DNA from: an uncultured Gammaproteobacteria bacterium
Lineage (GTDB): Bacteria > Patescibacteriota > Patescibacteriia > JACQRZ01
Direction: 5' to 3'
NCBI GenBank assembly: GCA_964621085.1
Contig: CAZUKY010000002.1
Location: forward strand, 22,637-86,636
DNA: 64,000 nucleotides
Part shown: positions 4,725 through 40,046 of the stretch, in pieces
Layout of the letters: every line of letters starts with the position of its first letter
Position numbering within the stretch: the first letter of the stretch is position 1
Position numbers and translations under genes: made by a program
The notes under the pieces: generated by a model
Database searches by the model: none
Told to the model about the DNA's origin: nothing
The model's input: only the letters and a program-made list of their open reading frames with translations

Positions 4725-4732
4725 GACCGTAT

Positions 4733-5811: not shown

Positions 5812-5832
5812 GGAAGGCAAAAAGAAAGTAAA

Positions 5833-5861
5833 AGAGCGTCTGCGTACAGACGCTCTTTTTC
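5833..5861 (+). terminator. Rho-independent terminator closing the pilin-like array
   Basis: agagcgtctg / cgta / cagacgctct 10-bp stem followed by a T-run (ttttc). Confidence 0.7.
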
Positions 5862-5883
5862 AGTTGCGCCTTTTGCGCAAGGT

Positions 5884-5919
5884 TATCCCCATGAATAGAT
5901 ACCGAAAGATTGGTATACT
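5884..5919 (+). promoter_or_regulatory. Putative promoter: TATCCCCA, 19-nt spacer, TGGTATACT
   Basis: tatcccca(5884-5891), 19 nt, tggtatact(5911-5919). Lies about 35 nt upstream of the tail-fibre-like gene start. Confidence 0.45.
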
Positions 5920-5954
5920 TGAGCATATAGTGAGCGGCATTCGCCTGAACGGCG

Positions 5955-9131: not shown

Positions 9132-9232
9132 CAACCACTCATCTAATCCGCAGCATAAGGCGAAGCGATGACGTGATCCGTATATGAGCAAACGGAATCA
9201 GCGCTCTCGCTTCGCCTCTTCAGTAGAAAGGC

Positions 9233-13069: not shown

Positions 13070-13112
13070 AAAGAGGAGCTCTAGGGCGGAGCGCTGATGC
13101 GGTGAATGAACC

Positions 13113-13148
13113 TATCCCCACAACAAACAGAACAGGGAGTGGTATGAT
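13113..13148 (+). promoter_or_regulatory. Putative promoter: TATCCCCA, 19-nt spacer, TGGTATGAT
   Basis: tatcccca(13113-13120), 19 nt, tggtatgat(13140-13148). Lies about 70 nt upstream of the giant protein gene. Confidence 0.45.
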
Positions 13149-13217
13149 AGAAGTGCCGTTCTTATTTGAACGGCAGGGCGTTTACCGCCATTTTAGGCAA
13201 CGTATATCAAGAGGCGC

Positions 13218-16200
13218 GTGCCCGTATTTTTGAGACATCATCGGCTGGTTTTCGCTGCCGGGGTTTTGGCCCTTGGCGGGTTTTTTGGCGTTCCCGTACT
13301 TGCGAATGCTCTTAGCGTCATGGTGGCAACGCCATTTCGAATCAGTACGCCTATCAACGGAACGGTGGTCACACTGCCGGAAGCGAAAGTGACGGTTCCA
13401 ATTACTGTTGTGTCGCCAGGCGACCAATATGCTGGCGTTACGGTTACCGCAGAGATCCGTTCGGCAAGCGGTGATGTGCGGACGCTTCCGATGAGTGTTT
13501 CATCGACCGGTGCAGCCGGAACGACATTTTCTGCGCAGTGGACTGCCACGACCGTCGGGAGCTACCTGATCACTGCGCGCGCAACGCAGTCCGGGTATAA
13601 TGACCGGGTCAGTGCGCCGGTTCGCGTGAATATCATCTCTCCGTCCGGAAACGCATCAGGGCGCATTTCCGGCGCTTTTACGCAGAGTGCCGCCAAGCAA
13701 GCCGGAAAATTCGACGTCATTCCTGGAACAGATGCAGGTGCAATTCCTGGTGACTACCGCCGGCCGCGCATTGGGCCCGTTCTGCCGCCGATCTTTGAGT
13801 TCAGTATTTCGGAACCGCTTGAACAGAAAGTGATGATGGATGTCAGTCTTTACGGCGCCGAAGCGCGAAAAGCCGCGGCAGAGAACTCGCGATTCCTGCT
13901 TGATTGGAGTGCAAATACTATTGCTCGCGAGCTGTCTGCCGGTGCACAGGAACGCATTCCGATCTATCGGAATGGCGCTGCTATTGTGCTCTCTGTTGGG
14001 CAAGTCAACCAAAATGCATACATCGATCTCTACTCCGCGCCGTACTATGACGGAGTTGCCGATGATATCGAGGATCCGATAAAATCAGTTCCCGGTTTTC
14101 AGAAACTGAAGGCCTGTCCGAATGCAGTCTCGTGCATTTTTTCTTTGGGGACAGCCAAGAACGGCCGGCATATCGTAGTCGCTCGTGTCAGTGCGAATGG
14201 CATCTCGCGCTTCTCATATCGTCTTGTCGAGGTGCGCGGGCAGAATGCGGCGCCGATTGTTGCAATGAGTCTTCTGAGCGATCAGAAACCATTTCTCCTG
14301 CCGCAAAAATTGAACATCCGAGTAGATGTGGCAGATGCTGACTCGGATCGCAATGCCGCTGGCAGCCCCATCGAGCGAGTGATTATTTTTGCGGGAGACA
14401 AAAAGATTGCCGAACTCGAAAAGCCAACACAAAATATTAATACGCGCACGGAAAAATTCAATTCTCTTTTTAAAGATCTCGATTTTTCGACGTACGCCAC
14501 ACTGCAGACGTATGCGGCCGAGTGGAAGGTTGAAAGCGGCCGCCATGACCTACGCGCGGTCGCAATCGACACCGAAGGCATGCCGTCAGATCCCTTTGTT
14601 ATTAAGGATTTCATTGCAACCGAGCGGCCGAAAGTTTCTGATCTTATCGTCGTCGGAAAGGAGCGTCCGTCGGATAGCGGTCCGTGGATCGTGCAAGAAG
14701 GAGAGGAGTTCACGTTGCAAGCAAAAGCGACAGACGACGGACGCATCGTGTCGATGGCATTTACGAGCGAACAAAAGGCGGCAGGCGGCGGATCCGCCTC
14801 GCCAGTTTCCGGTGAAGACAATCTGTATCGTCTCACCGTAAAGGATCGCGCCGCCGGCGCTGAATACGTATACGCCGGCATTGCACAGGATAACGAGGGG
14901 GTTACCAACGATCCTCTGCCGCGGATGACCGTCAAGATGAATAAGAAGCCGGATATCCGAGATCTGTCCCGTGATGCCGAGGAGTATCAGCCGAATACAA
15001 AAGTAACGCTTGCCGCACTTGCAAAGGACATCGATAGCGCGCTTTCATCCGTCGAGCTCGTTGATGCAAAGACAGGAGCCCGCATCGATTTCAAAGAAAA
15101 TATCGGCGCTTCAAAAAATACCGATTACGCCTACCGCTTCGAGTGGGTGCCGCCATGGAATGAAGATGCGAAAAATGTCGATCAGAGCGCGATGCACTCG
15201 CTTAAGCTCATCGTCCGGGATGCGGACGGCGGCGTTCGCGAGGCGACCTTCCCGACGGTGACCGTTCGCAACCGTGCGCCGTCCGTCACCAAATTTTCCG
15301 CCACAAAGGCGGTGTATCAGGATACCGAGCCCGTCGTCGTATCACTTGAGGCAATCGATAACGACAGTGGCATGAACGGCGTCACATTTGTCTTGAAAAA
15401 CACCGCCGGAACACTCAGTAAAAATTTCATTCTCAATGCCCCGACGCGGCCGGTGTCAGGCATTGATGTACGACGAGGCGGGGTGTATGAGGCCGAGATA
15501 AAAAATCTTGCGCCGGACTCCTACATCATAACGGCGATCGCTTCGGATATCGCTTCGCCCGCAAAAGCATCACCCGAACAGGTGGTGAGTGTCCGTGTCA
15601 ACGCGCCGCCGACGGCAGAAGGCCTGACGGTTTCCACTCCGCTCGTCCAACCGAACGTGCCCGCGACTTTTTCGATTATCGCGCGGGACAGCGACAGCGA
15701 CGTGAAAAGCGACAGTCGGATCGGGTCGGTGATGCTGCTGCGCGATGGTGTGGAAATCGCCGTCATGCGTCTGCGCGCTGGCAGTGGCGACACCTATGAA
15801 GCGAGCTGGACGCCGACCCTGTGGTCGCCAGACATTCCCGATCAGGCACAGCAGTATATCTCGAAAGGTTTTTCCGTACGGATCGAGGATACGGATAGGC
15901 GGCGCATCGAAAAAAAGACAGACATAACAGTAACCGTCAAGAATGATCCGCCTGCGCTTGTGCCGGATGGCAAGCAGCTGACCGAGCGGAGCGTCTATCA
16001 GAAGGGCGAGACCGTGACACTCTCGGCCGCTGTCAGTGATGCGGATAGCGGCGTTGCGCGCCTTCAGTTTTTCGCGAATGGGACGGCGATTCATACCATC
16101 GACAATCCTTCCCAAAAAGTTTCGTTCCAGTGGAAGCCGACTCCCGGAAGTTATGCCCTGACGGCAACGGCGACCGATCGCGCGAAACCGGTCAAGACGG

Positions 16201-19200
16201 CACAGTATCCGTCCGGAACCAATACGGTCGCAATCAAGGTCAACAATCCGCCGACGATCGATCGCATCGAGGTTGCGCCGAGTGCGCGCAAAACGGCGGA
16301 GTACCAGCCGAACGAACCGGTGAGCGTGACGGTCTACGCGACAGATGCGGACGGAAGCATTTCTCAGTCGGAGGTGCGCCTCATTGATGAGAAGGGAGCA
16401 AATCTCCCTATTGCGCTCAAGAAGGCAACACAAGCCGCAACAAAAGACGGCAAGGGAAACACGTATGCCTTCCAGATCGAGTGGCGTCCGACGTGGGCAG
16501 AGGATGGGGCGAATACAAACCAGTCGATGGTCTTTCCGTTCCGCGCGAGCGTGAAAGATAGCGACGGCGCGCAGCCCGAGGTTCTCGAGCAGTCGCGCGT
16601 AATAGTGAAGAACAGCGCACCGACAATTTCGGCTGCGGTAGCAAAGAGCGCGGCGAGCGACGGAAGATATTACGAGGGTGTCGACATTGCGCTTTCCGCG
16701 ACCGTGAAGGACGCCGAAGGAGAGGTTGGCGGCGTTACCTTCTATCGCGAGGAAGATAAAACGGCAATCGGCACTGGCGCGCGCGGCACGGCAGATACCT
16801 TCTCATACCTTTGGAAAAACGCGGCCGCAGGCACGCACCAGCTTTCCGTAAAAGCGATCGATAAAGCCCAACCGCCAAAGACCGCGCGGTATCCGGCAGC
16901 GGCAGGGCAGTTTATTCCGATTAAGGTGCTGGCAAAGCCGTCGATCGTATCCTTTACGGGTCCGACTCCCACCGTCGTTCATCTGAGCGGCGGAAACACA
17001 GGAACGGCGTCAATTCCGTTGGAATTGAAGGTGTCGGATCCGGACGGCATTGTGGCAAAGGCCGAGATCATCGGCAAGGGTGCGATGGCATCCGTGGGCA
17101 GCGGCACATATCGGTTGACGGTGTCGGAAACCGAACAAAAGATCCACTCCTATCGGGCGCGCCTCACCGACGCGATCGGCAGGACGTATGACTCGACGGT
17201 TGTCGCGGTGCGCGTCAACAAGCTTCCGACCGCAGCGATCGTGTCGCCGGCGGAAGCGGCAGTGTATTATCCAGGAACATCAGTCACGGTTACGATTGAC
17301 GCAGCCGATCCTGACGGTTCTGCTGACGGTGCGTCTGCAGGACCGGCAGAGAGCGCTAGATTGCGCGTAACGCATGGCGGCGCGACACAGGAATATCCTG
17401 CGCAGGCAGCGGGCGTGAACCGCTATACTGCAACCTTCAAAGTCGAGACAGAGGGATCTTATTCGCTTACGGCGATTTCCCGCGATAGAGATGACAAAGA
17501 CTCCCCTCTGTCTGCATCGCGGACGATCGTCGCGCAAAATGCAACGCCCGCAGTCAGCGATCTGAAGAGCGTGAAGAGCGTCTATCAGACCGGCGAGAAT
17601 GTAACGGTGTCACTCGATGCGCTGGATGCGGACAGCGGCATGGCGCGCGTCGAGTTCCTGTTGAACGGGAAGCAGACCGGCGGCGGCGCAATTTCTGAGC
17701 GAAAGGTGTCGGTAACAGCTGCCTCTGCTGGAAATGGATGTGCGGATAAGAATAAGAAGTGCACATATACCGCGAATTTCAGCGGCATTCCGGCTGGCGA
17801 GTACTCGGTGCGTGCGGTTGCATTTGACAAGGAGACTCCCGAAAAATTCGCAGCGACCGGAACAGCGGTATCCATGAAAGTTCACCGCACGCCGATCATC
17901 AGCGCATTCTCGGCAGGGAAGCCTCTCTATCAGAAAGGAGAGCGAGTGACTGTTTCGGCTACTGTGCAGGCGGACAACGGCATTGCGGGGAGCGGGTCGG
18001 CTAGTTTTGTGGAGTTCACCGCGAATGGCGCAAGAAAAGCAGTGCGGTATCCATCATCAGGCAACTGTTCGGCGGCATCATGCACGTTCAGCAGTGTCGA
18101 TCTCGGCGTTCTTTCGGACGGTGCGACCTATACGCTTAGCATTCGCGCCGTCGATACGGCAGGGAAGGCGAGCGCGACCGGCCAGTCTGGACAGGCAGCG
18201 ACCGCATCCGTCAAGGTGAATACGCCGCCGGCCGTTTCGGTAGCCGCAGCAGCACAGGGAAGAGATGCGGCAAATCAAGAGATCCGTTCGGATATTCCCG
18301 TAACAATTACGATTGCGCCCCGCGACAGTGACGGACAGATCGCTTCTGTGACACTGACGCAAGAGTACACGCCCTCGGGCTCATCAGCAGCGACGCGAAC
18401 CGTCGAGACGGCAACGCCGGGAAGTCGCCCTTCCGGTTGGGGGTATGACGCGCAGAGCGGAAACTTCACCCGAACGATCACGCCTGCCGCGGGATCGTAC
18501 AGCCTAACAGCTGTCACGCATGACACCGATGGCGCGCCGAGCGCGGTATCGAATACGATCGCGTTTATCGGAAGAAATGAAAAGCCCTCGATTGCGAGTA
18601 TGAATGCCAGCAAGGGCGTCTATCAGCAGGGTGAGTCGATCGGCGTTGAGGTGAAGGCGAAAGATGTTGATAGTGGCATGAAAGAAGTGGCATTTGTTCT
18701 CGGCGGTGATACGCGTGCCGTTCCAGCGACACAAGCGGCTGGCGGCGGTTGCGGTACGCGGGATAAGGAGTGCGTCTACGCGACAAGCTTTTCGAGTCGC
18801 AGTCCCGGCACCTATACGATTACGGCAACTGCTCGCGATACCGTGAATCCGCCTGGAGAGGCGGGCAGGACGGCAAGTTTCCGCGTGAATGCTGCTCCGT
18901 CCGGACGCATCTCTGCTCCCCAAACCGTCCAGATGAATGCAGGATTTACACTGATCCTGGATGCGACCGACAGCGACAGCAAATCGTCCGGTCCGGCAAG
19001 CGCATCAAATGGCATCAAGAGTGTTTCCTTCTCCGGTCCCGGCGTTGACAACGCGAGAATTGCGGTGAGCAACGTGACGGCAGGCGGCGCGCGCTACTCG
19101 TTGGCAGTTTCCGGGCAAGAGGCAGGCGGCCCCAAGTCGTATTCGGCAACAATCACAGACTGGGACGACAATAGCTTTACGACACCCGTCGCCGTTGTCG

Positions 19201-21761
19201 GCGTGCAGCGTCCGCCGATCCTTACGAATATGAAGACAGACAAGCGGATCTACCAAAGAGGAGATGATGTTGTCGTTTCGATTTCCGCCCAGGCCGACAA
19301 TGGGATGGATACGCTTGAGTTTTCAACCGACAGCGGCGCGATTGTAGCGGCGGCGGTAAGTAGTGCGTGCGTATCGCGCGAGTGCTCGTACTCGGCAACG
19401 TTTACGGGGCTTGCTGATGGGCGGTCGTACACGATCACGGCGACGGCAAAGGACCGAGCAGGTAAAATCGCAAGCACGACTGCGCAGATTACAATCAACC
19501 GTCCGCCGATCCTTACGATCCCGACGAGTTACTACGCGTTCCAGCAGGGTGATGATGCGAATGTTTCAGTTACTGTGCAGGCAGACAACGGCATGGATTT
19601 TGTCGAGTTCAAAGCTGCTGGTGCAACCGTGAGAACGAATGCGCCGAGTAACGACTCATGCGTCCGTTCCAGTTGCGAGTTTAGGGGGACATTTAAGGGA
19701 CTGTCAGCAGGACAAACTCATCGAGTCAGCATCACGGCACAGGATAAGGAAAAGAAGACGGCCGCAGGTACGCTTGATATCCGCGTGATAGCGCCGCCTC
19801 AGATTACGAATTTCAAACCCGGCAAGAGCGTGTATCAGGTGAACGAGTCGGTAAGCGCATCATTGGAAGTGCAGGCGGAAAATGGCATGGCGAATGCCGG
19901 CGACTCGCCAGCGATAAAAAACAGCAGCTATGTTGACTTCCAGGTAGACGGCGCAAGTAGGCGAGACTATCCCAGCCGCGGCGACTGCCGATCGGCACCA
20001 TGTTCCGTATCAACAGCGTTCGGTGCGCTCCCCGCAGGTAAAACCTATACACTATCCGCCACGGCGCGCGACAAGGCAGGGAAAGAGGCGGGTGCAACAA
20101 CAAGCGTAAAGGTGAATGCGCCGCCGAGCGGTGGGTTTGTCCGCACGCCCGAGGTTGTCGCAATTGGTAATGCACTCACACTGACGCTCGAGGTTGAGGA
20201 TGGCGACAGCGCGGACGTATCCGCAACATTGTCGGGCCCGTACAACCCGCGGCAGGTCAGCGTCAGCGGCTCAGGGAGGAAAAAAACCTACGTCTTCACG
20301 ACCGACGGCTTGCCGCTGAACACCGCAACGCCGACGACATATTCATATAGCGCGACGATTACAGACAATGAAGGGGGAAGTGCGGCGATCAGCCATGCCG
20401 TGCGCGTCAATCGCGTTCCCACACTCTCGCTCTCTTCATCTCCGACAGGCCCTCGCCTCAGGCAGGGTACGAGCGTCACACTCACAATGACTCCGAGTGA
20501 CCCTGATGGCACTATTTCGAGCGTCGATCTCTCGATCAATGGTGCGACTGAGACAATCACGCGTGCCGGTGATGGTTCATACAAGAAGACGTTTACGCCC
20601 AATCCTGGAGGATACTCGGTATCGGCTTCTGTAAAGGATACCGATGGCGCGCGTGCGACATCGGAGATCAGTTTTAATGTAAATGCAGCGCCGTCGGCGA
20701 AAATTGTAAACACGTCACGCAATGTGTGGAATGGCCAGTCGTTCACGGCACGGCCGACAGAACCGGCCGTCAATCCGGGCGAGTGGATCAGTGTGGACGT
20801 GGAGGCGACAGACTCCGACCGGGGCATTCGGGAGATTACGGCGATATTTCAAGGAGTGACACAGACGCTGTACACGACGGGATACTCGGATTGCGTCGCT
20901 GGTGCCGCCTGCGCAAGACGGTTTGATTTTCATGCTCCCTCCGGCGGGTGGCGGCCCGGAACGCACGAGCTGATCATCGAGACATACGACCGCGAGCCGC
21001 CGGACGCGCGCATGAGCGCACGGGTGAGTAAATCGATCCGCGTGAATGCGCCGCCTGTCGTCTCGTGGTATACGGTCAATATGCCAGGCCGCGGATACGT
21101 CTGGTGGTCATGGTGGGGAGGAGGCGCTCCGCCGGCACAGAGTATGAAGCTGGGTGAGGGCACAGCGTATCTTTACATGACAGCATACGATGATGGCGAG
21201 CTTGATAACAACACGGCATTCTTCGTAATCAATGGGAGTACTATCAAAGCTACGCATTACAGTACAAGTGGACAAACGCGCTATTATTACGCGACATATA
21301 CGCCATCACGGAGCGGACAATACACAATTACCGGACAAGTTGGCGATACGCAAGGCGGACTTACAGTACTTGGTAGAGATAAGGCTTTTGTGCTGACGGT
21401 CATAAATGATCCTCCGGTCGTATCAAATTTCACCCGCAAACTTGTTAGTAATTACCCGTACTGCGTACTCAATCTTTCTATGGAAGCCGCCGATGCTGCA
21501 CCGGGTGTCAGTTGGATGGGATTTTTATCGCTTTATAATTACTGGTCATGGCGATGGCCGGCATGGAGATGGGGTGGAGGGAAGTATGAAGCAAATGTAA
21601 CCTTCACAGAACCAGGAACACATTTGATTTCTGCGCGTGCGGCAGATCATGAAGGGGGATATACTGCGACGAGCGATGCCTACGTGTACATTGGTGACCG
21701 AGGATGGATCTGGGACTGGTGGAGTGGATGGCGTAGAGGCACCTATTGCGCGTATTACTAG
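13218..21761 (+). CDS. Giant secreted surface protein (2847 aa) of tandem bacterial Ig-like (Big-type) domains with Trp-rich C-terminal modules
   Basis: Signal peptide MPVFLRHHRLVFAAGVLALGGFFGVPVLANA. More than 20 repeats of ~100 aa with the pattern VN-x-PP..YQxGExVxVsxxAxDxDSGxxxVxF..NG...G.Y.LTA.A.D, joined by VNAPP / VKNSAP / VNRPP linkers. The last three modules carry W-x-W-x-W motifs (VWWSWWGGG, WSWRWPAWRWGGG, WIWDWWSGWRRG). Confidence 0.6.
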   Translation: MPVFLRHHRLVFAAGVLALGGFFGVPVLANALSVMVATPFRISTPINGTVVTLPEAKVTVPITVVSPGDQYAGVTVTAEIRSASGDVRTLPMSVSSTGAAGTTFSAQWTATTVGSYLITARATQSGYNDRVSAPVRVNIISPSGNASGRISGAFTQSAAKQAGKFDVIPGTDAGAIPGDYRRPRIGPVLPPIFEFSISEPLEQKVMMDVSLYGAEARKAAAENSRFLLDWSANTIARELSAGAQERIPIYRNGAAIVLSVGQVNQNAYIDLYSAPYYDGVADDIEDPIKSVPGFQKLKACPNAVSCIFSLGTAKNGRHIVVARVSANGISRFSYRLVEVRGQNAAPIVAMSLLSDQKPFLLPQKLNIRVDVADADSDRNAAGSPIERVIIFAGDKKIAELEKPTQNINTRTEKFNSLFKDLDFSTYATLQTYAAEWKVESGRHDLRAVAIDTEGMPSDPFVIKDFIATERPKVSDLIVVGKERPSDSGPWIVQEGEEFTLQAKATDDGRIVSMAFTSEQKAAGGGSASPVSGEDNLYRLTVKDRAAGAEYVYAGIAQDNEGVTNDPLPRMTVKMNKKPDIRDLSRDAEEYQPNTKVTLAALAKDIDSALSSVELVDAKTGARIDFKENIGASKNTDYAYRFEWVPPWNEDAKNVDQSAMHSLKLIVRDADGGVREATFPTVTVRNRAPSVTKFSATKAVYQDTEPVVVSLEAIDNDSGMNGVTFVLKNTAGTLSKNFILNAPTRPVSGIDVRRGGVYEAEIKNLAPDSYIITAIASDIASPAKASPEQVVSVRVNAPPTAEGLTVSTPLVQPNVPATFSIIARDSDSDVKSDSRIGSVMLLRDGVEIAVMRLRAGSGDTYEASWTPTLWSPDIPDQAQQYISKGFSVRIEDTDRRRIEKKTDITVTVKNDPPALVPDGKQLTERSVYQKGETVTLSAAVSDADSGVARLQFFANGTAIHTIDNPSQKVSFQWKPTPGSYALTATATDRAKPVKTAQYPSGTNTVAIKVNNPPTIDRIEVAPSARKTAEYQPNEPVSVTVYATDADGSISQSEVRLIDEKGANLPIALKKATQAATKDGKGNTYAFQIEWRPTWAEDGANTNQSMVFPFRASVKDSDGAQPEVLEQSRVIVKNSAPTISAAVAKSAASDGRYYEGVDIALSATVKDAEGEVGGVTFYREEDKTAIGTGARGTADTFSYLWKNAAAGTHQLSVKAIDKAQPPKTARYPAAAGQFIPIKVLAKPSIVSFTGPTPTVVHLSGGNTGTASIPLELKVSDPDGIVAKAEIIGKGAMASVGSGTYRLTVSETEQKIHSYRARLTDAIGRTYDSTVVAVRVNKLPTAAIVSPAEAAVYYPGTSVTVTIDAADPDGSADGASAGPAESARLRVTHGGATQEYPAQAAGVNRYTATFKVETEGSYSLTAISRDRDDKDSPLSASRTIVAQNATPAVSDLKSVKSVYQTGENVTVSLDALDADSGMARVEFLLNGKQTGGGAISERKVSVTAASAGNGCADKNKKCTYTANFSGIPAGEYSVRAVAFDKETPEKFAATGTAVSMKVHRTPIISAFSAGKPLYQKGERVTVSATVQADNGIAGSGSASFVEFTANGARKAVRYPSSGNCSAASCTFSSVDLGVLSDGATYTLSIRAVDTAGKASATGQSGQAATASVKVNTPPAVSVAAAAQGRDAANQEIRSDIPVTITIAPRDSDGQIASVTLTQEYTPSGSSAATRTVETATPGSRPSGWGYDAQSGNFTRTITPAAGSYSLTAVTHDTDGAPSAVSNTIAFIGRNEKPSIASMNASKGVYQQGESIGVEVKAKDVDSGMKEVAFVLGGDTRAVPATQAAGGGCGTRDKECVYATSFSSRSPGTYTITATARDTVNPPGEAGRTASFRVNAAPSGRISAPQTVQMNAGFTLILDATDSDSKSSGPASASNGIKSVSFSGPGVDNARIAVSNVTAGGARYSLAVSGQEAGGPKSYSATITDWDDNSFTTPVAVVGVQRPPILTNMKTDKRIYQRGDDVVVSISAQADNGMDTLEFSTDSGAIVAAAVSSACVSRECSYSATFTGLADGRSYTITATAKDRAGKIASTTAQITINRPPILTIPTSYYAFQQGDDANVSVTVQADNGMDFVEFKAAGATVRTNAPSNDSCVRSSCEFRGTFKGLSAGQTHRVSITAQDKEKKTAAGTLDIRVIAPPQITNFKPGKSVYQVNESVSASLEVQAENGMANAGDSPAIKNSSYVDFQVDGASRRDYPSRGDCRSAPCSVSTAFGALPAGKTYTLSATARDKAGKEAGATTSVKVNAPPSGGFVRTPEVVAIGNALTLTLEVEDGDSADVSATLSGPYNPRQVSVSGSGRKKTYVFTTDGLPLNTATPTTYSYSATITDNEGGSAAISHAVRVNRVPTLSLSSSPTGPRLRQGTSVTLTMTPSDPDGTISSVDLSINGATETITRAGDGSYKKTFTPNPGGYSVSASVKDTDGARATSEISFNVNAAPSAKIVNTSRNVWNGQSFTARPTEPAVNPGEWISVDVEATDSDRGIREITAIFQGVTQTLYTTGYSDCVAGAACARRFDFHAPSGGWRPGTHELIIETYDREPPDARMSARVSKSIRVNAPPVVSWYTVNMPGRGYVWWSWWGGGAPPAQSMKLGEGTAYLYMTAYDDGELDNNTAFFVINGSTIKATHYSTSGQTRYYYATYTPSRSGQYTITGQVGDTQGGLTVLGRDKAFVLTVINDPPVVSNFTRKLVSNYPYCVLNLSMEAADAAPGVSWMGFLSLYNYWSWRWPAWRWGGGKYEANVTFTEPGTHLISARAADHEGGYTATSDAYVYIGDRGWIWDWWSGWRRGTYCAYY

Positions 21762-21772
21762 GGAGTGAATAT

Positions 21773-24016
21773 ATGCAGAGCGGATTACAATGGATTCAAA
21801 AGAATAGCCGTGCTGCCTTTCTTGCACTTTTTGTCGTTGGTGTGCTTGGGGGTACATACCTACTTGTATCGTATCGCGGTACCGGTCCGGAGCAGGGCGG
21901 CCGGGACGGTTTTGTTTTTTTTGATGGTGCCTGGCACCCTGCCTTGAAAGAAGGGGATAGTGCATCTCTGAAACGTCTCTTACCGGTGCGTTTTTCATCA
22001 GCAGGCGGAGATGAGGTTGTCTCGCTATCGGCAGGCGAGGTTCTCAAGGGCAGCATATCCGTCGATTGGCTCTCGCCTGCTGCTCAGAGCATCACTGCCT
22101 CTGTTTTTGACCGGGAAACGTATGCAAAAATCGGTCAGGGAGTTTTTTCTCTCAAGCGAAATGAGATCTCTTCCGAGGGTTTTGTCCCATTTGAGGGGAC
22201 GGTCACGTACAGCGCCGCATCAAGCACGGACGGCTTTCTCCTTTTTGATGCAGGAGCTTCTCTTGCTGGAGAAACGCCAGATGCGCACGAAAAAGCTGAC
22301 GAAAGGGAAATAACAGCATACAGCATTTCGGTACTCCTCATTCCATCCGGGACTAATAAAAAACTTGTTGAGGGATTGAAGCAGTCGAAACAGTATGCAG
22401 CCCAAAATGCGTCAATTCGGATTATTGCATCGGGTGCGGAGGGAGTGGCGTTAGGTGAAGGGGGTGTTGGTGATGAAGCGGATGTCGTGAAGATAGAAAA
22501 AGTCATTGGAACTCAGACAGGAGCGGCAGGAGAACAAATGGTGATCAATTCTGGCGAAATGCTGAGGGGCTTGCTGCGCACTGATATTCTCGCCGCACAA
22601 TCAGTCACCACAGTCGCCGCTACTGTCGTTGACTCAAAAAAATTGAAGACGATCGGAAGTGGGACACTCTCCCTCAAGCGAGGCGAGACCTCTTCTGATG
22701 GCTTTGTCCCCTTTGAAGGCACGGTCACGTATAGCGGCGCATCAAGCACGGACGGATTTCTCCTGTTTGAGGCGGATGGGACTTCTGTCGGATCCAGTAT
22801 TCCGGTGATCCTCATTCCATCCGGCACAGATAGAAAGCTTGTCGAGGGGCTAAAAATGTCAAAGCAATACAACGCCTCTGAGGCGGTGATCCGCATCCTT
22901 CCGGGCAATGAGACGGAGCAGATGCCCGCCGGCCTGAAGCAGTCTTTTTCCGGTTCACTTCGCACTGATATTCTCGCCTCACAATCAGTCACCACAGTCG
23001 CCGCTACTGTCGTTGACTCAAAAAAATTGAAGACGATCGGAAGTGGGACACTCTCCCTCAAGCGAGGCGAGACCTCTTCTGATGGCTTTGTCCCCTTTGA
23101 AGGCACGGTCACGTATAGCGGCGCATCAAGCACGGACGGATTTCTCCTGTTTGAGGCAGGAAAGTTCCGAACACCGCAAGGATCGGAAGCAACTGCGGGG
23201 GGTGCAAGTGTTCCTTTTCCACTTGTCGCTCTTCCCGTGTTGGGTAATCAGCAAAAGCAAGAGCAGTCATCGATCCAGCCGAGTCGCTTTGACACGGCAG
23301 ATGCATCAATCCGCCTCTTCCCCTCAGGGGCAGGCACTGGTGATGGGTCGCAGACTTCTCTTCGGGGAGCTATTCATAAGGATGTGCTTGGTGCGCAACC
23401 CACCCCATCTATTTCTGCGCATATCATAGATCCAAAGACGACCTCCGTGATCGGCAGCGGCTCGTTTTCACTTAAACATGATGAAATCGGGAATGACGGG
23501 TTTGTCCCGTTCGATGGACAGATCACACAGAACGGCTCGCTCGGCTCGGAAGGAATCATGCTTTTCCAGATGGGTGCGGAAAAAGACGCGTTCTATGCCG
23601 CACTCGTTTCATTAGACTCTAAGGGACGAATAGCTGTTGTGCAGACTCGTCTTGAAGAGAAGCCGCCGGAAGCAGCGACTCCTCCGCCTTCCTCATCTTC
23701 ATCATCAGCGAACGCGGCATCTCAACAGGATGCAATAAAACTGGAACGAATTTCTGTCGTGCCGCGTGTCGGGCAAGGACCGCTTACACCGCCGCTTGCG
23801 AAGGATGGGGAGTGCCGTATTACCGGATGCAATAGGGAAGTTTGCGCTGATCGGGATTCACACTCTTCATGCGAACAGTACCTGCCCGAGTATGCATGCT
23901 ACGCAGGCGCCGTCTGCGAGCGCCAAAGCAACGGGGCGTGCGGATGGACACAGACAAAGGAACTCGCGCAATGCATTGAGGGTGTTCAGCGTGCAGGAAC
24001 CCAATCTTCACAGTAG
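21773..24016 (+). CDS. Membrane-anchored protein with four Gmad2-like Ig-fold repeats and a C-terminal Cys-rich module
   Basis: GGAG Shine-Dalgarno sits 8 nt upstream of the ATG at 21773. N-terminal TM (AAFLALFVVGVLGGTYLLV). Four repeats end in GFVPFEGTVTYS/GFVPFDGQITQN...GFLLFEA, a pattern reminiscent of GerM-associated Gmad2 domains. C-terminus is CRITGCNREVCADRD..CEQYLPEYACYAGAVCERQSNGACGW. Confidence 0.5.
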   Translation: MQSGLQWIQKNSRAAFLALFVVGVLGGTYLLVSYRGTGPEQGGRDGFVFFDGAWHPALKEGDSASLKRLLPVRFSSAGGDEVVSLSAGEVLKGSISVDWLSPAAQSITASVFDRETYAKIGQGVFSLKRNEISSEGFVPFEGTVTYSAASSTDGFLLFDAGASLAGETPDAHEKADEREITAYSISVLLIPSGTNKKLVEGLKQSKQYAAQNASIRIIASGAEGVALGEGGVGDEADVVKIEKVIGTQTGAAGEQMVINSGEMLRGLLRTDILAAQSVTTVAATVVDSKKLKTIGSGTLSLKRGETSSDGFVPFEGTVTYSGASSTDGFLLFEADGTSVGSSIPVILIPSGTDRKLVEGLKMSKQYNASEAVIRILPGNETEQMPAGLKQSFSGSLRTDILASQSVTTVAATVVDSKKLKTIGSGTLSLKRGETSSDGFVPFEGTVTYSGASSTDGFLLFEAGKFRTPQGSEATAGGASVPFPLVALPVLGNQQKQEQSSIQPSRFDTADASIRLFPSGAGTGDGSQTSLRGAIHKDVLGAQPTPSISAHIIDPKTTSVIGSGSFSLKHDEIGNDGFVPFDGQITQNGSLGSEGIMLFQMGAEKDAFYAALVSLDSKGRIAVVQTRLEEKPPEAATPPPSSSSSSANAASQQDAIKLERISVVPRVGQGPLTPPLAKDGECRITGCNREVCADRDSHSSCEQYLPEYACYAGAVCERQSNGACGWTQTKELAQCIEGVQRAGTQSSQ
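22571..22770 (+). repeat. Intragenic direct repeat, copy 1 (~200 bp)
   Basis: Matches 22961-23160 with a single mismatch across ~198 nt (gccgcacaa vs gcctcacaa). Confidence 0.85.
22961..23160 (+). repeat. Intragenic direct repeat, copy 2 (~200 bp)
   Basis: Near-identical to 22571-22770 and in the same reading frame. Both copies encode a Gmad2-like repeat. Confidence 0.85.
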
Positions 24017-24099
24017 GTATCATCGTCACAAGGGAGACAGGGTGCCGATCTTGTCATTTATGTGAATTTGGGTAGAGTGGGAGAATAAGCAGTTTTGCT

Positions 24100-27048
24100 A
24101 TGACGGCATCAGAACGGGAGAAAAAAATCCTTGAGTTTTGGGATCAAAACGCCATTTTTGAAAAATCGGTGCAGGAGCGGCCTGTAGAACGGCCGTATGT
24201 TTTTTATGACGGTCCGCCGTTTGCGACCGGGTTGCCGCACTATGGCCACATCGTCGCCTCACTCATGAAGGATATTGTTCCGCGCTATCGGACTATGAAG
24301 GGCGACCGTGTGGAGCGCGTGTGGGGATGGGACTGCCATGGCCTGCCGATCGAAAATATTATCGAGGAGAAGCTTTCTCTCTCGAGTAAAAAGGATATCG
24401 AAGACTACGGCGTTGCGCGGTTCAACGAGGCGTGCCGTGCGACGGTTTTGCAGTACGCTGAGGAGTGGAAGAAGACGATCCGGCGCATGGGCCGCTGGGT
24501 TGATATGGAGCACTCGTACATGACCATGGACCCCTCGTACATGGAGAGCGTGTGGTGGGTCTTCCGACAGTTGTGGGATCGCGGCTTGATCTATGAAGGG
24601 AAAAAAGCGATGCACATCTGTCCTCGCTGCGTAACGCCGCTTTCCAACTTCGAGGTTACGTTGAACTATAAGGACGCGAAAGACATCTCGGCAACGGTCG
24701 CGTTCCGCGTGACAAATGCCCACGCGATCGCCGAAACCGACCTCGCTATTCTCGCATGGACGACAACGCCCTGGACGCTGCCGGGAAATGTGCTGTTGGC
24801 CGTCGGAGAAGACATCGAGTACGCGGTCGCGACGGCGGGAGAGAATACTACGCAAAAAATCATTCTCGCCAAAGACCGCGTCGATGCGTACCGGGAAAAA
24901 ATGAAGGATACTCCGATTTCGATCGAACGGACGGTGAGGGGTATGGATCTGGTCGGTCTGACGTACGAACCGCTGTTTCCGTATTACGCCGATACGCCAA
25001 ACGCTTTCAGAGTCGTTGCCGCGGATTTCGTCACGACCGAAGACGGAACGGGCGTTGTTCATATCGCCCCGGCGTTCGGCGAAGACGACTATCGTCTCGG
25101 CGAAAAGGAGGGCGTCGGATTCGTCCAACACGTGACGATGGCAGGCACGTTTGCGAGCGAGGTGAGTGACTTTGCCGGACAGGAGGTTAAACCGAAAGAG
25201 GACCCGACACGCGCCGATATTGAGATCATCAAGTATTTGTCGCGCACCGATGCGCTGTTTTTCAAAGAAAAATACGAGCACACCTATCCTTTTTGCTGGC
25301 GCTGCGAAACCCCGCTCCTTAATTACGCAACAAGCAGCTGGTTTGTCCGCGTGACCGAGTTGAAAGAGCAGATGCGCGAGAATAATCAAAAAATTTCGTG
25401 GGTGCCAGAGCACATGAAAGAGGGGCGTTTCGGAAAATGGCTGGAGAATGCGCGCGACTGGGCGATATCGCGAAGCCGATTTTGGGGAACGCCGCTGCCG
25501 ATTTGGAAGAGCGAGTCGGGAGACACGATCTGCGTCGGAAGTATTGCAGAACTGAAGCAGCTTTCCGGCGCAGAGGTGTCTGATCTGCACAAGCACATCA
25601 TCGACGAGGTGCCGATCGTGAAGGATGGGGTAATCTATCGTCGGATTCCCGAGGTGCTGGACTGTTGGTTTGAGTCGGGTTCGATGCCGTACGCTCAGAT
25701 GCACTATCCGTTTGAGAACAAAGAGAAGTTCGAGGCGGGGTTTCCTGCCGAGTTTATTGCCGAGGGCCAAGACCAGACGCGCGGATGGTTCTATACGCTC
25801 CACGTGCTTGCAACCGCGCTGACGCGACCGCCCGCACCAGCGATTCCGGTTCGCCAAAGCGAGCCGGCATTCCGCAATGTGGTCGTCAATGGCATCGTCT
25901 TGGCCGAGGATGGGAAAAAGATGAGCAAGCGGCTGAAGAACTACCCGGATCCGTTGGACGTGATCGAGACCTATGGCGCCGACGCGTTGCGGCTCTACTT
26001 TGCGGCCTCGCCGGCAATGCATGCGGAAAACTTGAACTTTTCTGAAAGTGGCGTTCGCGAGGTGTACAACAAGGTGATCAATACGCTCTTTAATGTGGTT
26101 TCGTTTTACGAGTTGTTCGCTTCCGAGGCGAGGAGTGGAGAAGAAGGATCAGTTCAACGAACCGTTCTTGACCACTGGATCTTCTCGCGGGTTGGGGCGT
26201 TGCGCGAAGAGGTATCCCGGCACCTGCAGGCGTACCGCCTTGCAGAAGCCGCCCGTCCGTTTGTCGCGTTTTCGGCAGACCTGTCCCAGTGGTATGTGCG
26301 TCGGTCGCGCGACCGGTTCAAGAGTGACGATCTCCCTGAGCGCGCGGCAGCGATTTCGACGCTCGCACGCGTCTTGTTCGAGGTCTCGCGGCTGCTCGCG
26401 CCATTCGCTCCGTTTCTTGCGGAAGAAATTCATCAAACGCTGCGCCGTTGCGGCGGATTACCGCCCGATGCGGCCGAGTCCGTGCATCTTGAGGAGTGGC
26501 CGGCAGCCGACCTGGTGCGCGACGAAGCGCTGGAACAGGAGATGGAGGCAGCACGAAGTGTTGTGGAAATGGCCCATGGCCTGCGCGCGGAGGCGAAAAT
26601 TCGCGTGCGCCAGCCGCTTGGTATGCTGTTGTGTTCGCGGGCATTTTCTTCAGAGATAGCCCGAATTATTGCCGACGAGGTCAATGTGGAGCAGGTTGCG
26701 TATGGAGGCGACAGGGCGGCTGACGATCAGTGGCGCGTGCGCGAGGCCGGCGGAATCCGCGCCGCGCTTTCCATTGAAATAACACCCGAACTGCGCGATG
26801 CCGGAATTGTCCGCGAGATCGTCCGCCGTGTGAATGATTTGCGGAAAGAGGCCGGCCTGACGCCGAAAGATCGCATCGAGGTGGCGTATGAGACCGATGA
26901 TGAGAAGCTCGCCGCACTGCTCGCCGCGCGGGCAGAAGACATACAGCGCAGCATCGGTGCGGATGGGATTACTCGCAAGCGACTCGAGGCAATGGAGCGG
27001 ATTGAGGTTGATGCTTCGTCGCTTTCAATCGCAGTCATACGCACATGA
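24100..27048 (+). CDS. ileS: Isoleucine--tRNA ligase, type 2 (eukaryote/archaea-like)
   Basis: N-terminus FYDGPPFATGLPHYGHIVASLMKD (HYGH class-I motif). KMSKR motif at ..GKKMSKRLKNYPDP. Length 982 aa. The overall arrangement matches type-2 IleRS. Confidence 0.85.
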   Translation: MTASEREKKILEFWDQNAIFEKSVQERPVERPYVFYDGPPFATGLPHYGHIVASLMKDIVPRYRTMKGDRVERVWGWDCHGLPIENIIEEKLSLSSKKDIEDYGVARFNEACRATVLQYAEEWKKTIRRMGRWVDMEHSYMTMDPSYMESVWWVFRQLWDRGLIYEGKKAMHICPRCVTPLSNFEVTLNYKDAKDISATVAFRVTNAHAIAETDLAILAWTTTPWTLPGNVLLAVGEDIEYAVATAGENTTQKIILAKDRVDAYREKMKDTPISIERTVRGMDLVGLTYEPLFPYYADTPNAFRVVAADFVTTEDGTGVVHIAPAFGEDDYRLGEKEGVGFVQHVTMAGTFASEVSDFAGQEVKPKEDPTRADIEIIKYLSRTDALFFKEKYEHTYPFCWRCETPLLNYATSSWFVRVTELKEQMRENNQKISWVPEHMKEGRFGKWLENARDWAISRSRFWGTPLPIWKSESGDTICVGSIAELKQLSGAEVSDLHKHIIDEVPIVKDGVIYRRIPEVLDCWFESGSMPYAQMHYPFENKEKFEAGFPAEFIAEGQDQTRGWFYTLHVLATALTRPPAPAIPVRQSEPAFRNVVVNGIVLAEDGKKMSKRLKNYPDPLDVIETYGADALRLYFAASPAMHAENLNFSESGVREVYNKVINTLFNVVSFYELFASEARSGEEGSVQRTVLDHWIFSRVGALREEVSRHLQAYRLAEAARPFVAFSADLSQWYVRRSRDRFKSDDLPERAAAISTLARVLFEVSRLLAPFAPFLAEEIHQTLRRCGGLPPDAAESVHLEEWPAADLVRDEALEQEMEAARSVVEMAHGLRAEAKIRVRQPLGMLLCSRAFSSEIARIIADEVNVEQVAYGGDRAADDQWRVREAGGIRAALSIEITPELRDAGIVREIVRRVNDLRKEAGLTPKDRIEVAYETDDEKLAALLAARAEDIQRSIGADGITRKRLEAMERIEVDASSLSIAVIRT

Positions 27049-27094
27049 CATCTCGCCCTCCGGATTTTGATTCCTTATTCATACATTCTTCCCC

Positions 27095-27673
27095 ATGATC
27101 GGGTATTTGCGCGGAACCATTGCAGCAAAGCGGGAACAGACAGTTCTTCTTGATGTGTCGGGTGTCGGCTATGTCGTGCATCTGTCGGTAGCGGCCCTCC
27201 AGCGCTTTTCTGTCGGTGATACTGCCGCGTACTCCATTTATCACTATGTGCGCGAGGATGCGTCTGAGCTATTCGGTTTTGAGAAGGAAGACGAACTTCG
27301 TTTTTTTGAGCGCCTCCTTTCTGTTTCTGGTGTCGGCCCCAAGACCGCTCTTTCGATTATCGGAGTAGCATCACTTGAGCGCTTGATCGAGGCGATCGGT
27401 CGGGGAGATGCAGCGCTGTTCAAAACGGTCTCGGGCGTCGGGAGTAAGACAGCCGAGCGGATCGTTGTTGAGCTAAAAAATTCTTCCGCACTCTTCCATA
27501 TCCCGAGCGGCCACGCGGAGCGGAGCGCTCCCGGCGATGCGGACATTATTGAGGCACTCATCGGGCTCGGCTATTCTGCGTCCCAGGCGCGCGATGCCGT
27601 TCGCTCCATTCCGGCCGAGCTCGTATCTGCAGAGGATCGTTTGAAGTGCGCCTTGAAAATACTCGCGCGATAA
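27095..27673 (+). CDS. ruvA: Holliday junction branch-migration protein RuvA
   Basis: MIGYLRGTIAAK...VLLDVSGVGYVVHLS..FGF..ERLLSVSGVGPKTALSII is canonical RuvA domain I/II sequence. Confidence 0.85.
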   Translation: MIGYLRGTIAAKREQTVLLDVSGVGYVVHLSVAALQRFSVGDTAAYSIYHYVREDASELFGFEKEDELRFFERLLSVSGVGPKTALSIIGVASLERLIEAIGRGDAALFKTVSGVGSKTAERIVVELKNSSALFHIPSGHAERSAPGDADIIEALIGLGYSASQARDAVRSIPAELVSAEDRLKCALKILAR

Positions 27674-27682
27674 TCCATCGAA

Positions 27683-28669
27683 GTGATGACATCACAAGAG
27701 ATTCCAGCAAGGTGGGATCAGCGACTCATCGGTGATCCGTTTCCGCAATTTTTGCAATCTTCGGCGTGGGCGGCATTCCAGTCGTCGCTTTCCCGGGAGC
27801 TCTTTTTCATTCATGATGAAGAGTTTTCGTACCAGGGCATGGGTGTTCGCCTGCCGTTGGGTCGTGCAGGATCCTATCTCTTCTTTCCGCGGGGCCCGTA
27901 CGTGCGAGATGGGGAGGCATTCGCACGGTTTTGCGACGAGGCAACCGCACTTTGCCGGAAAAAAAATTTTCTTTTTTTCCGCTGTGAGCCGATCGGGACG
28001 TCGGATGTCCAGATCCCCAAAACCCTCAAAAAAACCACCGCCATCCATCCTGCCGATACGTTGTGTGTCGACCTCTCGAAAAGCGAAGAAGAGCTGTTTT
28101 ACTCACTACATCAAAAGACACGCTATAATATTCGGTTGGCGCAAAAAAAAGGCGTACGCGTGAGCGATGAATTGTCTGAAGGAAGGATCGAGGATTTTTT
28201 GCGGCTGCTGAGGAAAACATCCGAGCGCCAACCGTTCTCGACACATCCAGCAGAATACTATCGCGCGCTCATCCGTTTTTTCTCCACACCGGCACCCCAA
28301 AGGCCGATCGGTATCCGTTTGTATTCCGCTATCCATCATGATATATGTATAGCGAACATATGCGTTCTGGAATTCGGTCCGATCGCCGTGTATCTCCACG
28401 GGGCGAGCGATTATGCGGCGCGCGACCTCATGGCGCCGGCTCTTCTTCAGTGGGAGGCGATGCTGAGCGCTAAACGGCGCGGATGTCAGACTTATGACTT
28501 TTGGGGAATAACACCATCGGCTGATCCGCATCATCCCTGGGCAGGCATTACTCGATTTAAAAAAGGATTCGGCGGCACGGTTGTCTCGTATCCGGGCACT
28601 TTTGACTCCGCCTGCAGCCCCCTGTACCAAGTGTATGCATTCGCCCGGCGGGTACTGAAAGGGCGGTGA
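27683..28669 (+). CDS. FemAB-family peptidoglycan interpeptide-bridge aminoacyltransferase (FemX-like)
   Basis: C-terminal region ..MAPALLQWEAMLSAKRRGCQTYDFWGI..WAGITRFKKGFGG matches the FemAB family pattern. 328 aa. Confidence 0.6.
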   Translation: MMTSQEIPARWDQRLIGDPFPQFLQSSAWAAFQSSLSRELFFIHDEEFSYQGMGVRLPLGRAGSYLFFPRGPYVRDGEAFARFCDEATALCRKKNFLFFRCEPIGTSDVQIPKTLKKTTAIHPADTLCVDLSKSEEELFYSLHQKTRYNIRLAQKKGVRVSDELSEGRIEDFLRLLRKTSERQPFSTHPAEYYRALIRFFSTPAPQRPIGIRLYSAIHHDICIANICVLEFGPIAVYLHGASDYAARDLMAPALLQWEAMLSAKRRGCQTYDFWGITPSADPHHPWAGITRFKKGFGGTVVSYPGTFDSACSPLYQVYAFARRVLKGR

Positions 28670-28848
28670 GAGTTATGTCCTCCTCGGGAGCGTTCCTTCA
28701 GGCGCCGCCCGCAGCCGGCAAGCATGGCTTTTCGAGAGAAACGAGAAAATTGCCGGCGAGGACAGAGGCGGATTCTCGCAGGGAATCCGCCGTGCGGCTG
28801 AAGGAATGCCCCCGAGTGATGCAGTGCAAAGTTCGCACTCATTTCCCC

Positions 28849-28920
28849 GCTCTCGTATTTTAATGGATAAAATACCTCCCTCCGAAGGAGGTGATAGGGG
28901 TTCGATTCCCTTCGAGAGCA
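28849..28920 (+). tRNA. tRNA-Arg (anticodon CCG)
   Basis: Manual fold: acceptor GCTCTCG/CGAGAGC, anticodon stem CCTCC/GGAGG with loop CTCCGAA, T-arm AGGGG-TTCGATT-CCCTT, discriminator A. The D-arm is AU-rich with an AATGGATA loop, shared with the Arg-TCG tRNA at 49820. No encoded CCA. Confidence 0.6.
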
Positions 28921-28944
28921 GAGAAATGAGAGTGAAAGCTGACT

Positions 28945-29496
28945 ATGGAACTAACTTTCCTTCTGATACTTCTGGCCGTCCTCGGCACCTTTTCGTACGC
29001 GAGCGTAAGCGCTGCTCCATGGGTGCCGATTCGGTCGCGTGACGTGAGACGCGCTCTTGATTTGGCCCAGATACAGCCCGGCGAGCGGCTGTACGATCTC
29101 GGATGCGGCGATGGCCGCATCGTGTTCGGGGCAGGCGCGCGGGGCGCGAAAGGCGTTGGTTTTGAGATCTCTCTTTTGCCCTACAGTATCGGAAAGATCC
29201 GCCAACTCATTTCCGGATCGAAACGCGGCAGGATTCTCTATCGGGATCTGTGGCGGGTCTCATTGGCCGATGCGGATATTGTCTACGTGTTTCTCATGCC
29301 GAAAATGTACCCGCGGCTGCAGGAAAAATTCCTGCGCGAGCTCTCACCTCAAACACGCATCATCGCGCATGCATGGCCCTTCCCTGGATGGGTGCCGGAA
29401 AAGATCGATGACGAGGCCGGACGCCTGAAACTCTACCGATATCGCCTTAAAACCGCCTTGAACACAATAAGTGAACAGAAAAATTCATTTAAATAA
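28945..29496 (+). CDS. Class I SAM-dependent methyltransferase with N-terminal TM segment
   Basis: Motif I LYDLGCGDGRIVFGAGARGAKGVGFEIS. Hydrophobic N-terminus. Confidence 0.6.
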   Translation: MELTFLLILLAVLGTFSYASVSAAPWVPIRSRDVRRALDLAQIQPGERLYDLGCGDGRIVFGAGARGAKGVGFEISLLPYSIGKIRQLISGSKRGRILYRDLWRVSLADADIVYVFLMPKMYPRLQEKFLRELSPQTRIIAHAWPFPGWVPEKIDDEAGRLKLYRYRLKTALNTISEQKNSFK

Positions 29497-29772
29497 AAAG
29501 GAAAATAGGCACTCCAAGTCAAAAGGTCTAAAAACACTGAGTAGGGAAGTGACTCAAGAAAATATAACGAATGCATGCCGACAGATCGGGATATATTTGG
29601 GGAAAAGAGAAAATTTTATTATAAATTAAGGAATTTTTTGTGGATAAGTTGGGGATGAACCGGACGTTCCTGTTGATACCATTGGTTGTTCGCTTGAAAA
29701 TATAAGGGAAAATGGCATTTTCCGGATCATTATTTGCAAAATAAAAGCTATTTTAAATAGTCAAAATACATC

Positions 29773-29801
29773 TTGACATGTATGAAGGCACGCGGTATCA
29801 T
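29773..29801 (+). promoter_or_regulatory. Sigma70-type promoter for the rpoBC operon (TTGACA-17-TATCAT)
   Basis: ttgaca(29773-29778), 17 nt, tatcat(29796-29801). Lies at the end of an AT-rich tract, about 265 nt upstream of rpoB. Confidence 0.5.
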
Positions 29802-29936
29802 TCCACATACCCTGCTTTTATCAGATATTCACGGGTAAACATGTTTTTGGGCCACATGTTGAAGTGAGTCGTTCGACTTCACCGGCATTTAATTATTGCC
29901 TGGTGATCGTTTTTTTATCTCTACGACTTTCACAGC

Positions 29937-30045
29937 TGGCGCATTTCCTCGCGTGTTAGGTTGATTCGGGGGTTCCAGCTCCGGTGCTCGACGCTGTATT
30001 CTCAAATACAGCTTACTCCGCTCATCGCTGGCACCTTGAACTGCA
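29937..30045 (+). other. Conserved non-coding element, copy A, within the rpoB leader, enclosed by a 14-bp long-range stem
   Basis: Shares the blocks tggcgcatttcCtcg, ctccggtgctcgacgctgtat, atacagcttactccgctc and ccttgaactgca with 42569-42660. The internal hairpin gctgtat/atacagc has a variable loop. Flanking stem gactttcacagctg (29925-29938) pairs with cagctgtgaaagtc (30048-30061). Confidence 0.6.
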
Positions 30046-30065
30046 CTCAGCTGTGAAAGTCGTGT

Positions 30066-33000: not shown

Positions 33001-33341
33001 GCTCGATCGGTCCGTACTCGCTTATCACGCAGCAGCCGCTCGGCGGTAAGGCGCAGTCCGGCGGCCAGCGCTTCGGTGAGATGGAAGTCTGGGCGCTTGA
33101 AGCCTATGGCGCCGCGCACACGCTTCAGGAAATTTTGACGATCAAATCCGATGACGTGACCGGCCGGTCGAAGGCATATGAGGCGATCATCAAGGGAGAG
33201 CCGATCCAAAAGGTGAACGTACCGGAGGCATTCAATGTTCTCGTACGCGAGTTGAAGGGACTGTGCCTTGATGTCGAACTAATAAAGGAGACGGGCGACG
33301 ATGATGCACTCGAGGATGAAGAAGAGCGTGCATCCGAGTAG
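30066..33341 (+). CDS. rpoB: DNA-directed RNA polymerase subunit beta
   Basis: Conserved RpoB blocks (..[11 protein letters not shown].., ..[10 protein letters not shown].., ..NMQRQAVPL.., ..[57 protein letters not shown]). 1091 aa. Confidence 0.95.
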
Positions 33342-39967: not shown

Positions 39968-40046
39968 AAGCACGGCCGTTTTTCGCTACGATAAGAGCAT
40001 TGAATTCCGTCTGAAAAGAAGCGGATTTTTGAGCTTTACCTGGATT

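Follow-up and report, generated by a model that had tools for sequence, protein, structure and literature searches.

A near-perfect in-frame repeat in a four-domain Gmad2-like protein gene of an uncultured Patescibacteriota: a likely gene-conversion tract

We analysed a 64,000-nucleotide (nt) stretch of DNA, hereafter the window, which corresponds to positions 22,637-86,636 of contig CAZUKY010000002.1 in the metagenome-assembled genome (MAG) GCA_964621085.1 of an uncultured, groundwater-type Patescibacteriota. One of its genes encodes a protein with four divergent repeat units, here numbered domains 1 to 4, which are distantly related to the Gmad2 family and, as far as can be read from the sequence, form the stalk of a surface protein. 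The cores of domains 2 and 3 are encoded by two direct copies of a block (copies A and B, respectively) that are almost identical at the nucleotide level, and this near-perfect in-frame repeat is real and statistically overwhelming. The block is likely to be a segmental gene-conversion tract, in which the core of domain 2 was copied over the core of domain 3, either recently or recurrently.

An identical block with sharp borders

When the window is compared with itself at an offset of 384 nt, 196 of 197 nucleotides match between 22577-22773 (copy A) and 22961-23157 (copy B). The spacing of 384 nt equals 128 codons, and both copies lie in the same orientation, the same reading frame and the same gene. 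The sole mismatch within the block, G at 22595 in copy A vs. T at 22979 in copy B, corresponds to Ala284 and Ser412 in the numbering of the 756-amino acid (aa) open reading frame (ORF). Both borders are sharp. On the left, the match is at background level before 22577, with the drop at 22576/22577. On the right, the first base past the block differs synonymously (22774 G and 23158 A, in codons GCG and GCA) and identity collapses afterwards, the block being 199 nt long instead of 197 if one further matching base is counted.

The block contains the longest exact direct repeat of the window (178 nt, 22596-22773). Once copy B is removed, the longest exact repeat in the window shrinks to 21 nt, as compared to 14-16 nt in shuffled sequence. 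If the two cores had diverged to the same extent as those of domains 1 and 2 (65% identity), the chance of 178 consecutive matches would be about 5e-34. A repeat search of the whole 64-kb window yielded no second long near-identical repeat, and Tandem Repeats Finder reported no array (0 rows).

A first-pass annotation of this DNA had described a near-perfect, same-frame repeat with one or two differences, in agreement with the single mismatch in 197 nt and the synonymous difference next door (22774/23158). Its second copy was correctly placed, but its first copy (22571-22770) started 6 nt too far to the left, so that its length of 200 bp and its implied spacing of 390 nt have to be replaced by 197 (or 199) nt and 384 nt. 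It had also described the other two repeats as much more divergent, as we find: the cores of domains 1 and 4 share 65% and 53% nucleotide identity, respectively, with that of domain 2.

Origin of the identical block

The comparison of the four units indicates that the high identity is confined to part of a domain. In a codon alignment of units 2 and 3, 196 of the 198 core positions are identical, vs. 31% in the N-terminal flank and 49% in the C-terminal flank. Synonymous sites behave likewise: among codons specifying the same amino acid, one of 65 differs between units 2 and 3, vs. 14 of 38 between units 1 and 2 and 20 of 27 between units 2 and 4. Local nucleotide alignment of the flanks of copies A and B gave scores hardly distinguishable from those of shuffled sequences (z = 1.2 upstream and 0.6 downstream). 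Of the roughly 95 residues of the domain, the identical block encodes the 66 in the centre; in the structural model, this patch (aa 278-343) corresponds to strands 3-6 of a predicted seven-strand domain, strands 1, 2 and 7 lying outside. Thus, the earlier description of the repeat as the duplication of an entire Gmad2-like domain does not hold, as the block covers strands 3-6 only and is bordered by flanks without detectable similarity (z about 1).

The DNA downstream of unit 1 is related to that downstream of unit 2 (z = 22 against shuffles); in particular, 22792-22869 is 74% identical over 78 nt to 22318-22395, in the linker following domain 1. Copy A thus belongs to a unit whose paralogy to unit 1 extends over its full length. 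By contrast, the flanks of copy B exhibit no nucleotide similarity to the flanks of either copy A or domain 1. Since unit 2 resembles unit 1 throughout, the shared core is 65% identical to that of domain 1, and the flanks of unit 3 resemble those of neither unit, we regard domain 2 as the likelier donor, conversion probably having proceeded from there into domain 3.

Gene-conversion tracts, and concerted evolution between paralogues more generally, leave islands of identity with sharp borders. We find such an island here, which includes synonymous sites, ends abruptly on both sides and lies within diverged but homologous surroundings. RecA (40802-41911) and RuvA (27095-27673) are both encoded in the window, and we infer homologous recombination as the mechanism. 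Compared to tracts of this kind, the present one is intragenic, it involves adjacent domains, and its putative donor and recipient are assigned from a comparison of the units. Under the gene-conversion hypothesis, domains 2 and 3 would be older, already diverged units of one gene, and the four-strand core of the immunoglobulin (Ig)-like domain 2 would have overwritten the homologous core of domain 3 in a non-reciprocal manner. This could have been a single, very recent event, or else repeated copying, amounting to concerted evolution confined to the core.

The window comes from a metagenome-assembled contig, the protein record P0001 has one member on one 103-kb contig, and the repeat exceeds typical k-mer length. 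The metagenome assembler might have created the second copy, or its identity to the first, if it made a chimeric join, collapsed a strain bubble or filled a gap. We regard such an artefact as quite improbable in view of an independent assembly, namely the Logan assembly (k = 31) of run SRR5011273, whose contigs were found through exact-protein look-ups of neighbouring genes. Each 31-mer is present once in Logan contigs (PMC12424806). One contig (L084) matches window positions 3218-22625 with 0 mismatches, carries the G at 22595 joined to the unique sequence upstream, and ends at the last 31-mer holding this copy A-specific base. Another one (L083) matches 23128-30314, also with 0 mismatches, and starts at the first 31-mer holding the copy B-specific base 23158. 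These breaks, at exactly 22625 and 23128, are those expected if, in the reads, the 178-nt segment occurs in two contexts on its left and two on its right. An independent assembly thus breaks as a true repeat predicts, which makes an artefact of the MAG's assembler unlikely; it also bears out the first-pass warning that the site is at risk of assembly collapse. Moreover, the spacer between the copies follows on the 3' end of the block and leads into the 5' end of the block again, an arrangement that is possible only if one molecule carries two copies; the spacer also codes for those parts of the domains that should lie there, the frame stays open throughout, and a copy-specific base is retained. 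On the other side, the junction between spacer and copy B is present in the window sequence alone.

Given two genuine copies, the simplest account would be a recent head-to-tail duplication of the whole 384-nt domain unit that has hardly diverged since. The copies are indeed direct, in frame, 128 codons apart and separated by one or two differences. A tandem duplication of the unit would, however, make the copies identical over 384 nt at this offset, and only 197 nt are found, a shortfall that we take to exclude it. In addition, identity collapses at 22576/22577 and at 22774, the flanks lack detectable nucleotide similarity, Tandem Repeats Finder reports nothing, and neutral divergence cannot erase the flanks and yet spare the synonymous sites of 65 core codons. 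Overall, we consider this scenario very unlikely. Of the two origins proposed earlier, recent duplication or ongoing gene conversion, the latter is therefore favoured, whereas duplication is contradicted by the 197 instead of 384 identical nucleotides and by the lack of an array. Still less probable is an ancient duplication whose core has been held identical not by recombination but by selection at the nucleotide level, as for an embedded RNA or an antisense gene. Although a 206-aa antisense ORF (22513-23133) extends across the region, it looks like a shadow of the GC-rich repeat and is unsupported by any homologue; Rfam matches in the window are limited to three tRNAs, none of them in this region, and selection on the protein alone cannot keep synonymous sites identical. 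Diversity-generating retroelements are common in bacteria of the candidate phyla radiation (CPR), and a pair of nearly identical blocks, each about 200 nt long, one of which lies in a surface protein encoded by a CPR genome, is reminiscent of their template and variable repeats. There is next to no chance that the blocks are such a pair: the copies differ by a single G/T exchange on the coding strand, all 46 adenines of the block are unaltered, each copy is translated, in one and the same frame of one gene and in mid-protein, and a Pfam scan of the 18 large ORFs of the window revealed no reverse-transcriptase family.

Several observations weigh against gene conversion as described above. RecA-dependent pairing may have been prevented by the divergence of the domain 3 core prior to conversion, given that the other cores are 53-65% identical. 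With a diverged recipient, a single recent event needs either a recipient that was still similar or a template-switch mechanism. Continuous homogenisation since an old duplication avoids this pairing difficulty, and is indistinguishable here from a single event. The first and last strands that domain 3 would have kept as its own rest on weak amino-acid similarity and on a low-confidence part of the model built from the window units alone (predicted local distance difference test, pLDDT, 43-47). In the collections searched, no second strain or relative displays the pre-conversion state or a change in copy number. Finally, a de Bruijn graph gives no copy number and would also fit three copies or more, or several variants mixed together, and the spacer-to-copy B junction is seen in the window sequence only.

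Gmad2-like domains and the eight-cysteine end domain

The longest ORF runs from a TTG start at 21746 to 24016 (756 aa). The database protein P0001 (747 aa, NCBI-derived) is 100% identical to its product and starts at ATG 21773, which is preceded by a GGAG motif 7-8 nt upstream. The protein contains a single hydrophobic helix (aa 13-35), at its N-terminus. This membrane anchor is followed by four divergent Gmad2-like Ig domains, all of them all-beta units, then by a linker rich in Ser and Pro and, at the C-terminus, a domain containing eight cysteines. We read the whole as a membrane-anchored extracellular stalk made of the four Ig domains and topped by the eight-cysteine end domain. On the minus strand, the antisense ORF mentioned above spans both copies of the block and consequently contains an internal repeat itself; we consider it a shadow ORF that mirrors the GC-rich coding strand.

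The affinity of the four units to Gmad2 is a distant one. Pfam Gmad2 (PF10648, gathering cut-off 25.7 bits) scores 14.3 bits on the whole protein (E = 0.051), below the cut-off, and a Pfam scan of the four units taken singly returned no hit. A scan of metagenome contigs retrieved two proteins sharing the DGFVPFEG motif (on contigs L081 and L082), which are bona fide Gmad2 proteins (47 and 55 bits). An hhalign comparison of the four-unit profile with the former protein gave a probability of 95.3% (E = 2e-8), and a comparison with a 68-member Gmad2 alignment gave 94.5% (E = 8e-8, 66 columns). A local hidden Markov model (HMM) built from the latter alignment scores the window protein at 58 bits. 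The Gmad2 alignment covers the central and C-terminal part of the units only. Window units and Gmad2 proteins have the core motif DGFVPFEG...G.L.F in common, whereas none of the window units has either of two motifs of the Gmad2 consensus, SPL..G.ARG.W.FEG.FP, from its N-terminal half, and KDNPSG, from close to its end.

Gmad2 has been predicted to adopt a fibronectin type III (FnIII)/Ig-like fold, and an association with cell-wall-related domains has been noted (Rigden & Galperin 2008, PMC2732212). AlphaFold supplied with the Gmad2 family alignment returned a confident seven-strand sandwich (pLDDT 87.4, vs. 62 for the window units alone); the modelled units have the all-beta Ig/FnIII-like fold. 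Foldseek found no significant match to the unit model in the PDB, and a PDB sequence search with the unit profile retrieved chance-level matches only. In sum, the units resemble Gmad2 domains by their all-beta Ig-like sandwich, core motif, hhalign probability and association with the same end domain, and differ from them by a sub-threshold Pfam score and by the lack of the N-terminal and KDNPSG motifs. "Gmad2-like", as the units had been termed, is thus a fair name if understood as distant homology, hhalign probabilities against bona fide Gmad2 reaching 94.5-95.3% despite the low Pfam score.

The C-terminal domain comprises exactly eight cysteines. Its scores against TIGR04292 (20.8 bits, cut-off 200) and TIGR04289 (12.3 bits, cut-off 50) are both sub-threshold, and the Pfam scan revealed no family covering it, as far as could be told. 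An exhaustive search of representative sequences with the whole protein yielded 2215 matching proteins (E <= 1e-3). For all of the 150 best of these 2215 matches, the best-scoring stretch lies in the eight-cysteine region, with 30-64% identity in this domain among the 150 best matches listed. According to a local HMM search, 20 of these 150 best relatives also carry a strong Gmad2 domain (P0043, P0053, P0059-P0061, P0065, P0067, P0079, P0091, P0093, P0099, P0100, P0105, P0107, P0112, P0120, P0122, P0139, P0143 and P0145). Typically, such a protein is about 240 aa long and consists of an anchor, one Gmad2 domain and the cysteine domain. The anchor is usually N-terminal and the cysteine domain last, this order being reversed in a few proteins (e.g., P0091), while P0145 has two Gmad2 domains interleaved with other cysteine-rich modules. 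The analysis thus exposes a recurrent architecture of membrane anchor, Gmad2 and eight-cysteine domain. Judged by its sequence, the window gene is a divergent, expanded form of it, with four domains instead of one (or two, as in P0145).

Multiple copies of the eight-cysteine domain also occur in P0022, P0042, P0024 and P0106, which are Asn-rich, low-complexity proteins of eukaryotic rather than bacterial appearance. The distribution of this domain may therefore be very wide.

Relatives, consequences and genomic neighbourhood

Close relatives of the repeat gene are hard to find. A whole-protein search of the protein collection retrieved the protein itself only (P0001, one member), and exact look-ups of the 756-aa and 747-aa products found neither on record. 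A scan with the repeat profile detected no relative in genome contigs, a collection that does not include the source genome, and no close relative or related locus in metagenome contigs. In Logan, the locus was found in one sample (SRR5011273) among the look-ups made, and a literature search for this run returned no paper. The best matches of the neighbouring IleRS, with up to 63% identity, belong to Uhrbacteria and Magasanikbacteria MAGs, which places the organism in the Patescibacteria (CPR); among 80 related Patescibacteria loci, none (0/80) has a homologue of the repeat gene beside IleRS.

The 384-nt spacing corresponds to 128 codons, and any deletion or duplication between the copies therefore stays in frame. 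Deletion would leave a protein of 628 aa (counted from the TTG start) with three domains. We infer that the 178 nt of perfect identity could serve as a substrate for unequal recombination, adding or removing 128 codons and giving rise to three- or five-domain variants; the earlier suggestion that the repeat is a recombination hotspot is plausible on these grounds. Surface proteins with in-frame repeats that recombine and thereby change in size include the streptococcal alpha C and Rib proteins and the staphylococcal SasG and Aap. For Helicobacter pylori CagY, in-frame rearrangements between direct DNA repeats are reported to change the size of this surface-exposed protein (PMC2194252). The window gene is similar to CagY, Rib or SasG in that direct repeats with whole-codon spacing lie in a surface protein made of repeated domains. 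It differs from them in that their repeats are many head-to-tail whole units with demonstrated size variation among strains, whereas the window gene has two copies, each covering part of a domain, with unique DNA in between and no tandem array.

It is conceivable, though we hold it to be unlikely, that the island of identity is maintained as a recombination switch that adds or removes a 128-residue module, the population then consisting of three-, four- and five-domain forms. If so, the switch would change the distance between the membrane and the eight-cysteine end domain, and the protein would be a length-variable surface stalk, analogous to CagY and its rearrangements, in an uncultured episymbiotic CPR lineage. 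More soberly, the block is a new instance of a well-known type of event and nothing unusual among bacterial surface proteins that contain repeats. That repeated domains are homogenised within a gene is already well known from such proteins, and the general significance of this case is low. Its interest lies rather in providing a candidate, testable by polymerase chain reaction, for surface-protein size variation in Patescibacteria, where such variation has hardly been looked at, and in marking a site that breaks short-read assemblies of this genome or may lead them to a wrong copy number.

The features of the gene and its upstream neighbourhood are listed in Table 1.

Table 1. Coordinates of the repeat gene, its internal features and neighbouring genes in the window
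Feature	Position	Strand	Description
Repeat-protein gene	21773..24016	+	747 aa from ATG 21773
Domain 1 core	22055..22252	+	Older paralogue of copy A
Copy A	22577..22773	+	Core of domain 2, aa 278-343, predicted strands 3-6; probable donor
Lone mismatch	22595	+	G vs. T at 22979, Ala vs. Ser
Unique 187-nt spacer	22774..22960	+	Encodes last strand of domain 2, inter-domain linker and first strands of domain 3
Copy B	22961..23157	+	Core of domain 3, aa 406-471; probable recipient
Domain 4 core	23375..23572	+	Most diverged paralogue
Eight-cysteine domain	23798..23995	+	C-terminal, aa 685-750
Six small T4SS_pilin (PF18895) genes, run 2671-5811	2671-3381, 3406-3855, 3875-4324, 4326-4724, 4733-5317, 5371-5811	+	Pfam assignment
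Two large ORFs	5955-9131, 9233-13069	+	1058 and 1278 aa; between pilins and giant Big_7 protein
Giant Big_7/Ig-repeat protein	13218..21761	+	2847 aa; Pfam Big_7, 6.9e-42

The TAG stop codon of the giant Big_7 gene ends 12 nt before the ATG of the repeat gene at 21773, and these two genes are probably co-transcribed. The pilin run is immediately followed by the genes of three very large proteins, secreted or located at the surface, and then by the repeat gene; all of these genes are on the plus strand. The 1058- and 1278-aa ORFs had no Pfam or NCBIfam match. Together, the pilins, the large proteins and the repeat gene look like one surface-appendage cluster, and this pilin and giant-adhesin cluster may be a more interesting object than the repeat itself. 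Downstream of the repeat gene are the genes for IleRS, RuvA and FemAB, followed by rpoB and rpoC.

Some minor observations concern the same region. Near its C-terminus, the giant protein has three Trp-rich motifs, WWSWWGGG (21102-21116), WSWRWPAWRWGGG (21543-21566) and GWIWDWWSGWRRG (21705-21731), the last of which ends about nine residues before the stop codon. In the region of the pilin run, two pairs of paralogous stretches (2549-2645 and 3264-3360; 4485-4597 and 5084-5196) are 72-73% identical. The Logan contig that starts in copy B ends at 30314, inside the conserved gene rpoB (30066-33341), presumably at a graph branch caused by k-mers that also occur in a different strain or species of the sample. 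Further downstream, just after FtsK and before RecA, an ORF on the plus strand (39807-40754) encodes HTH_25 and Glucodextran_B-like domains.

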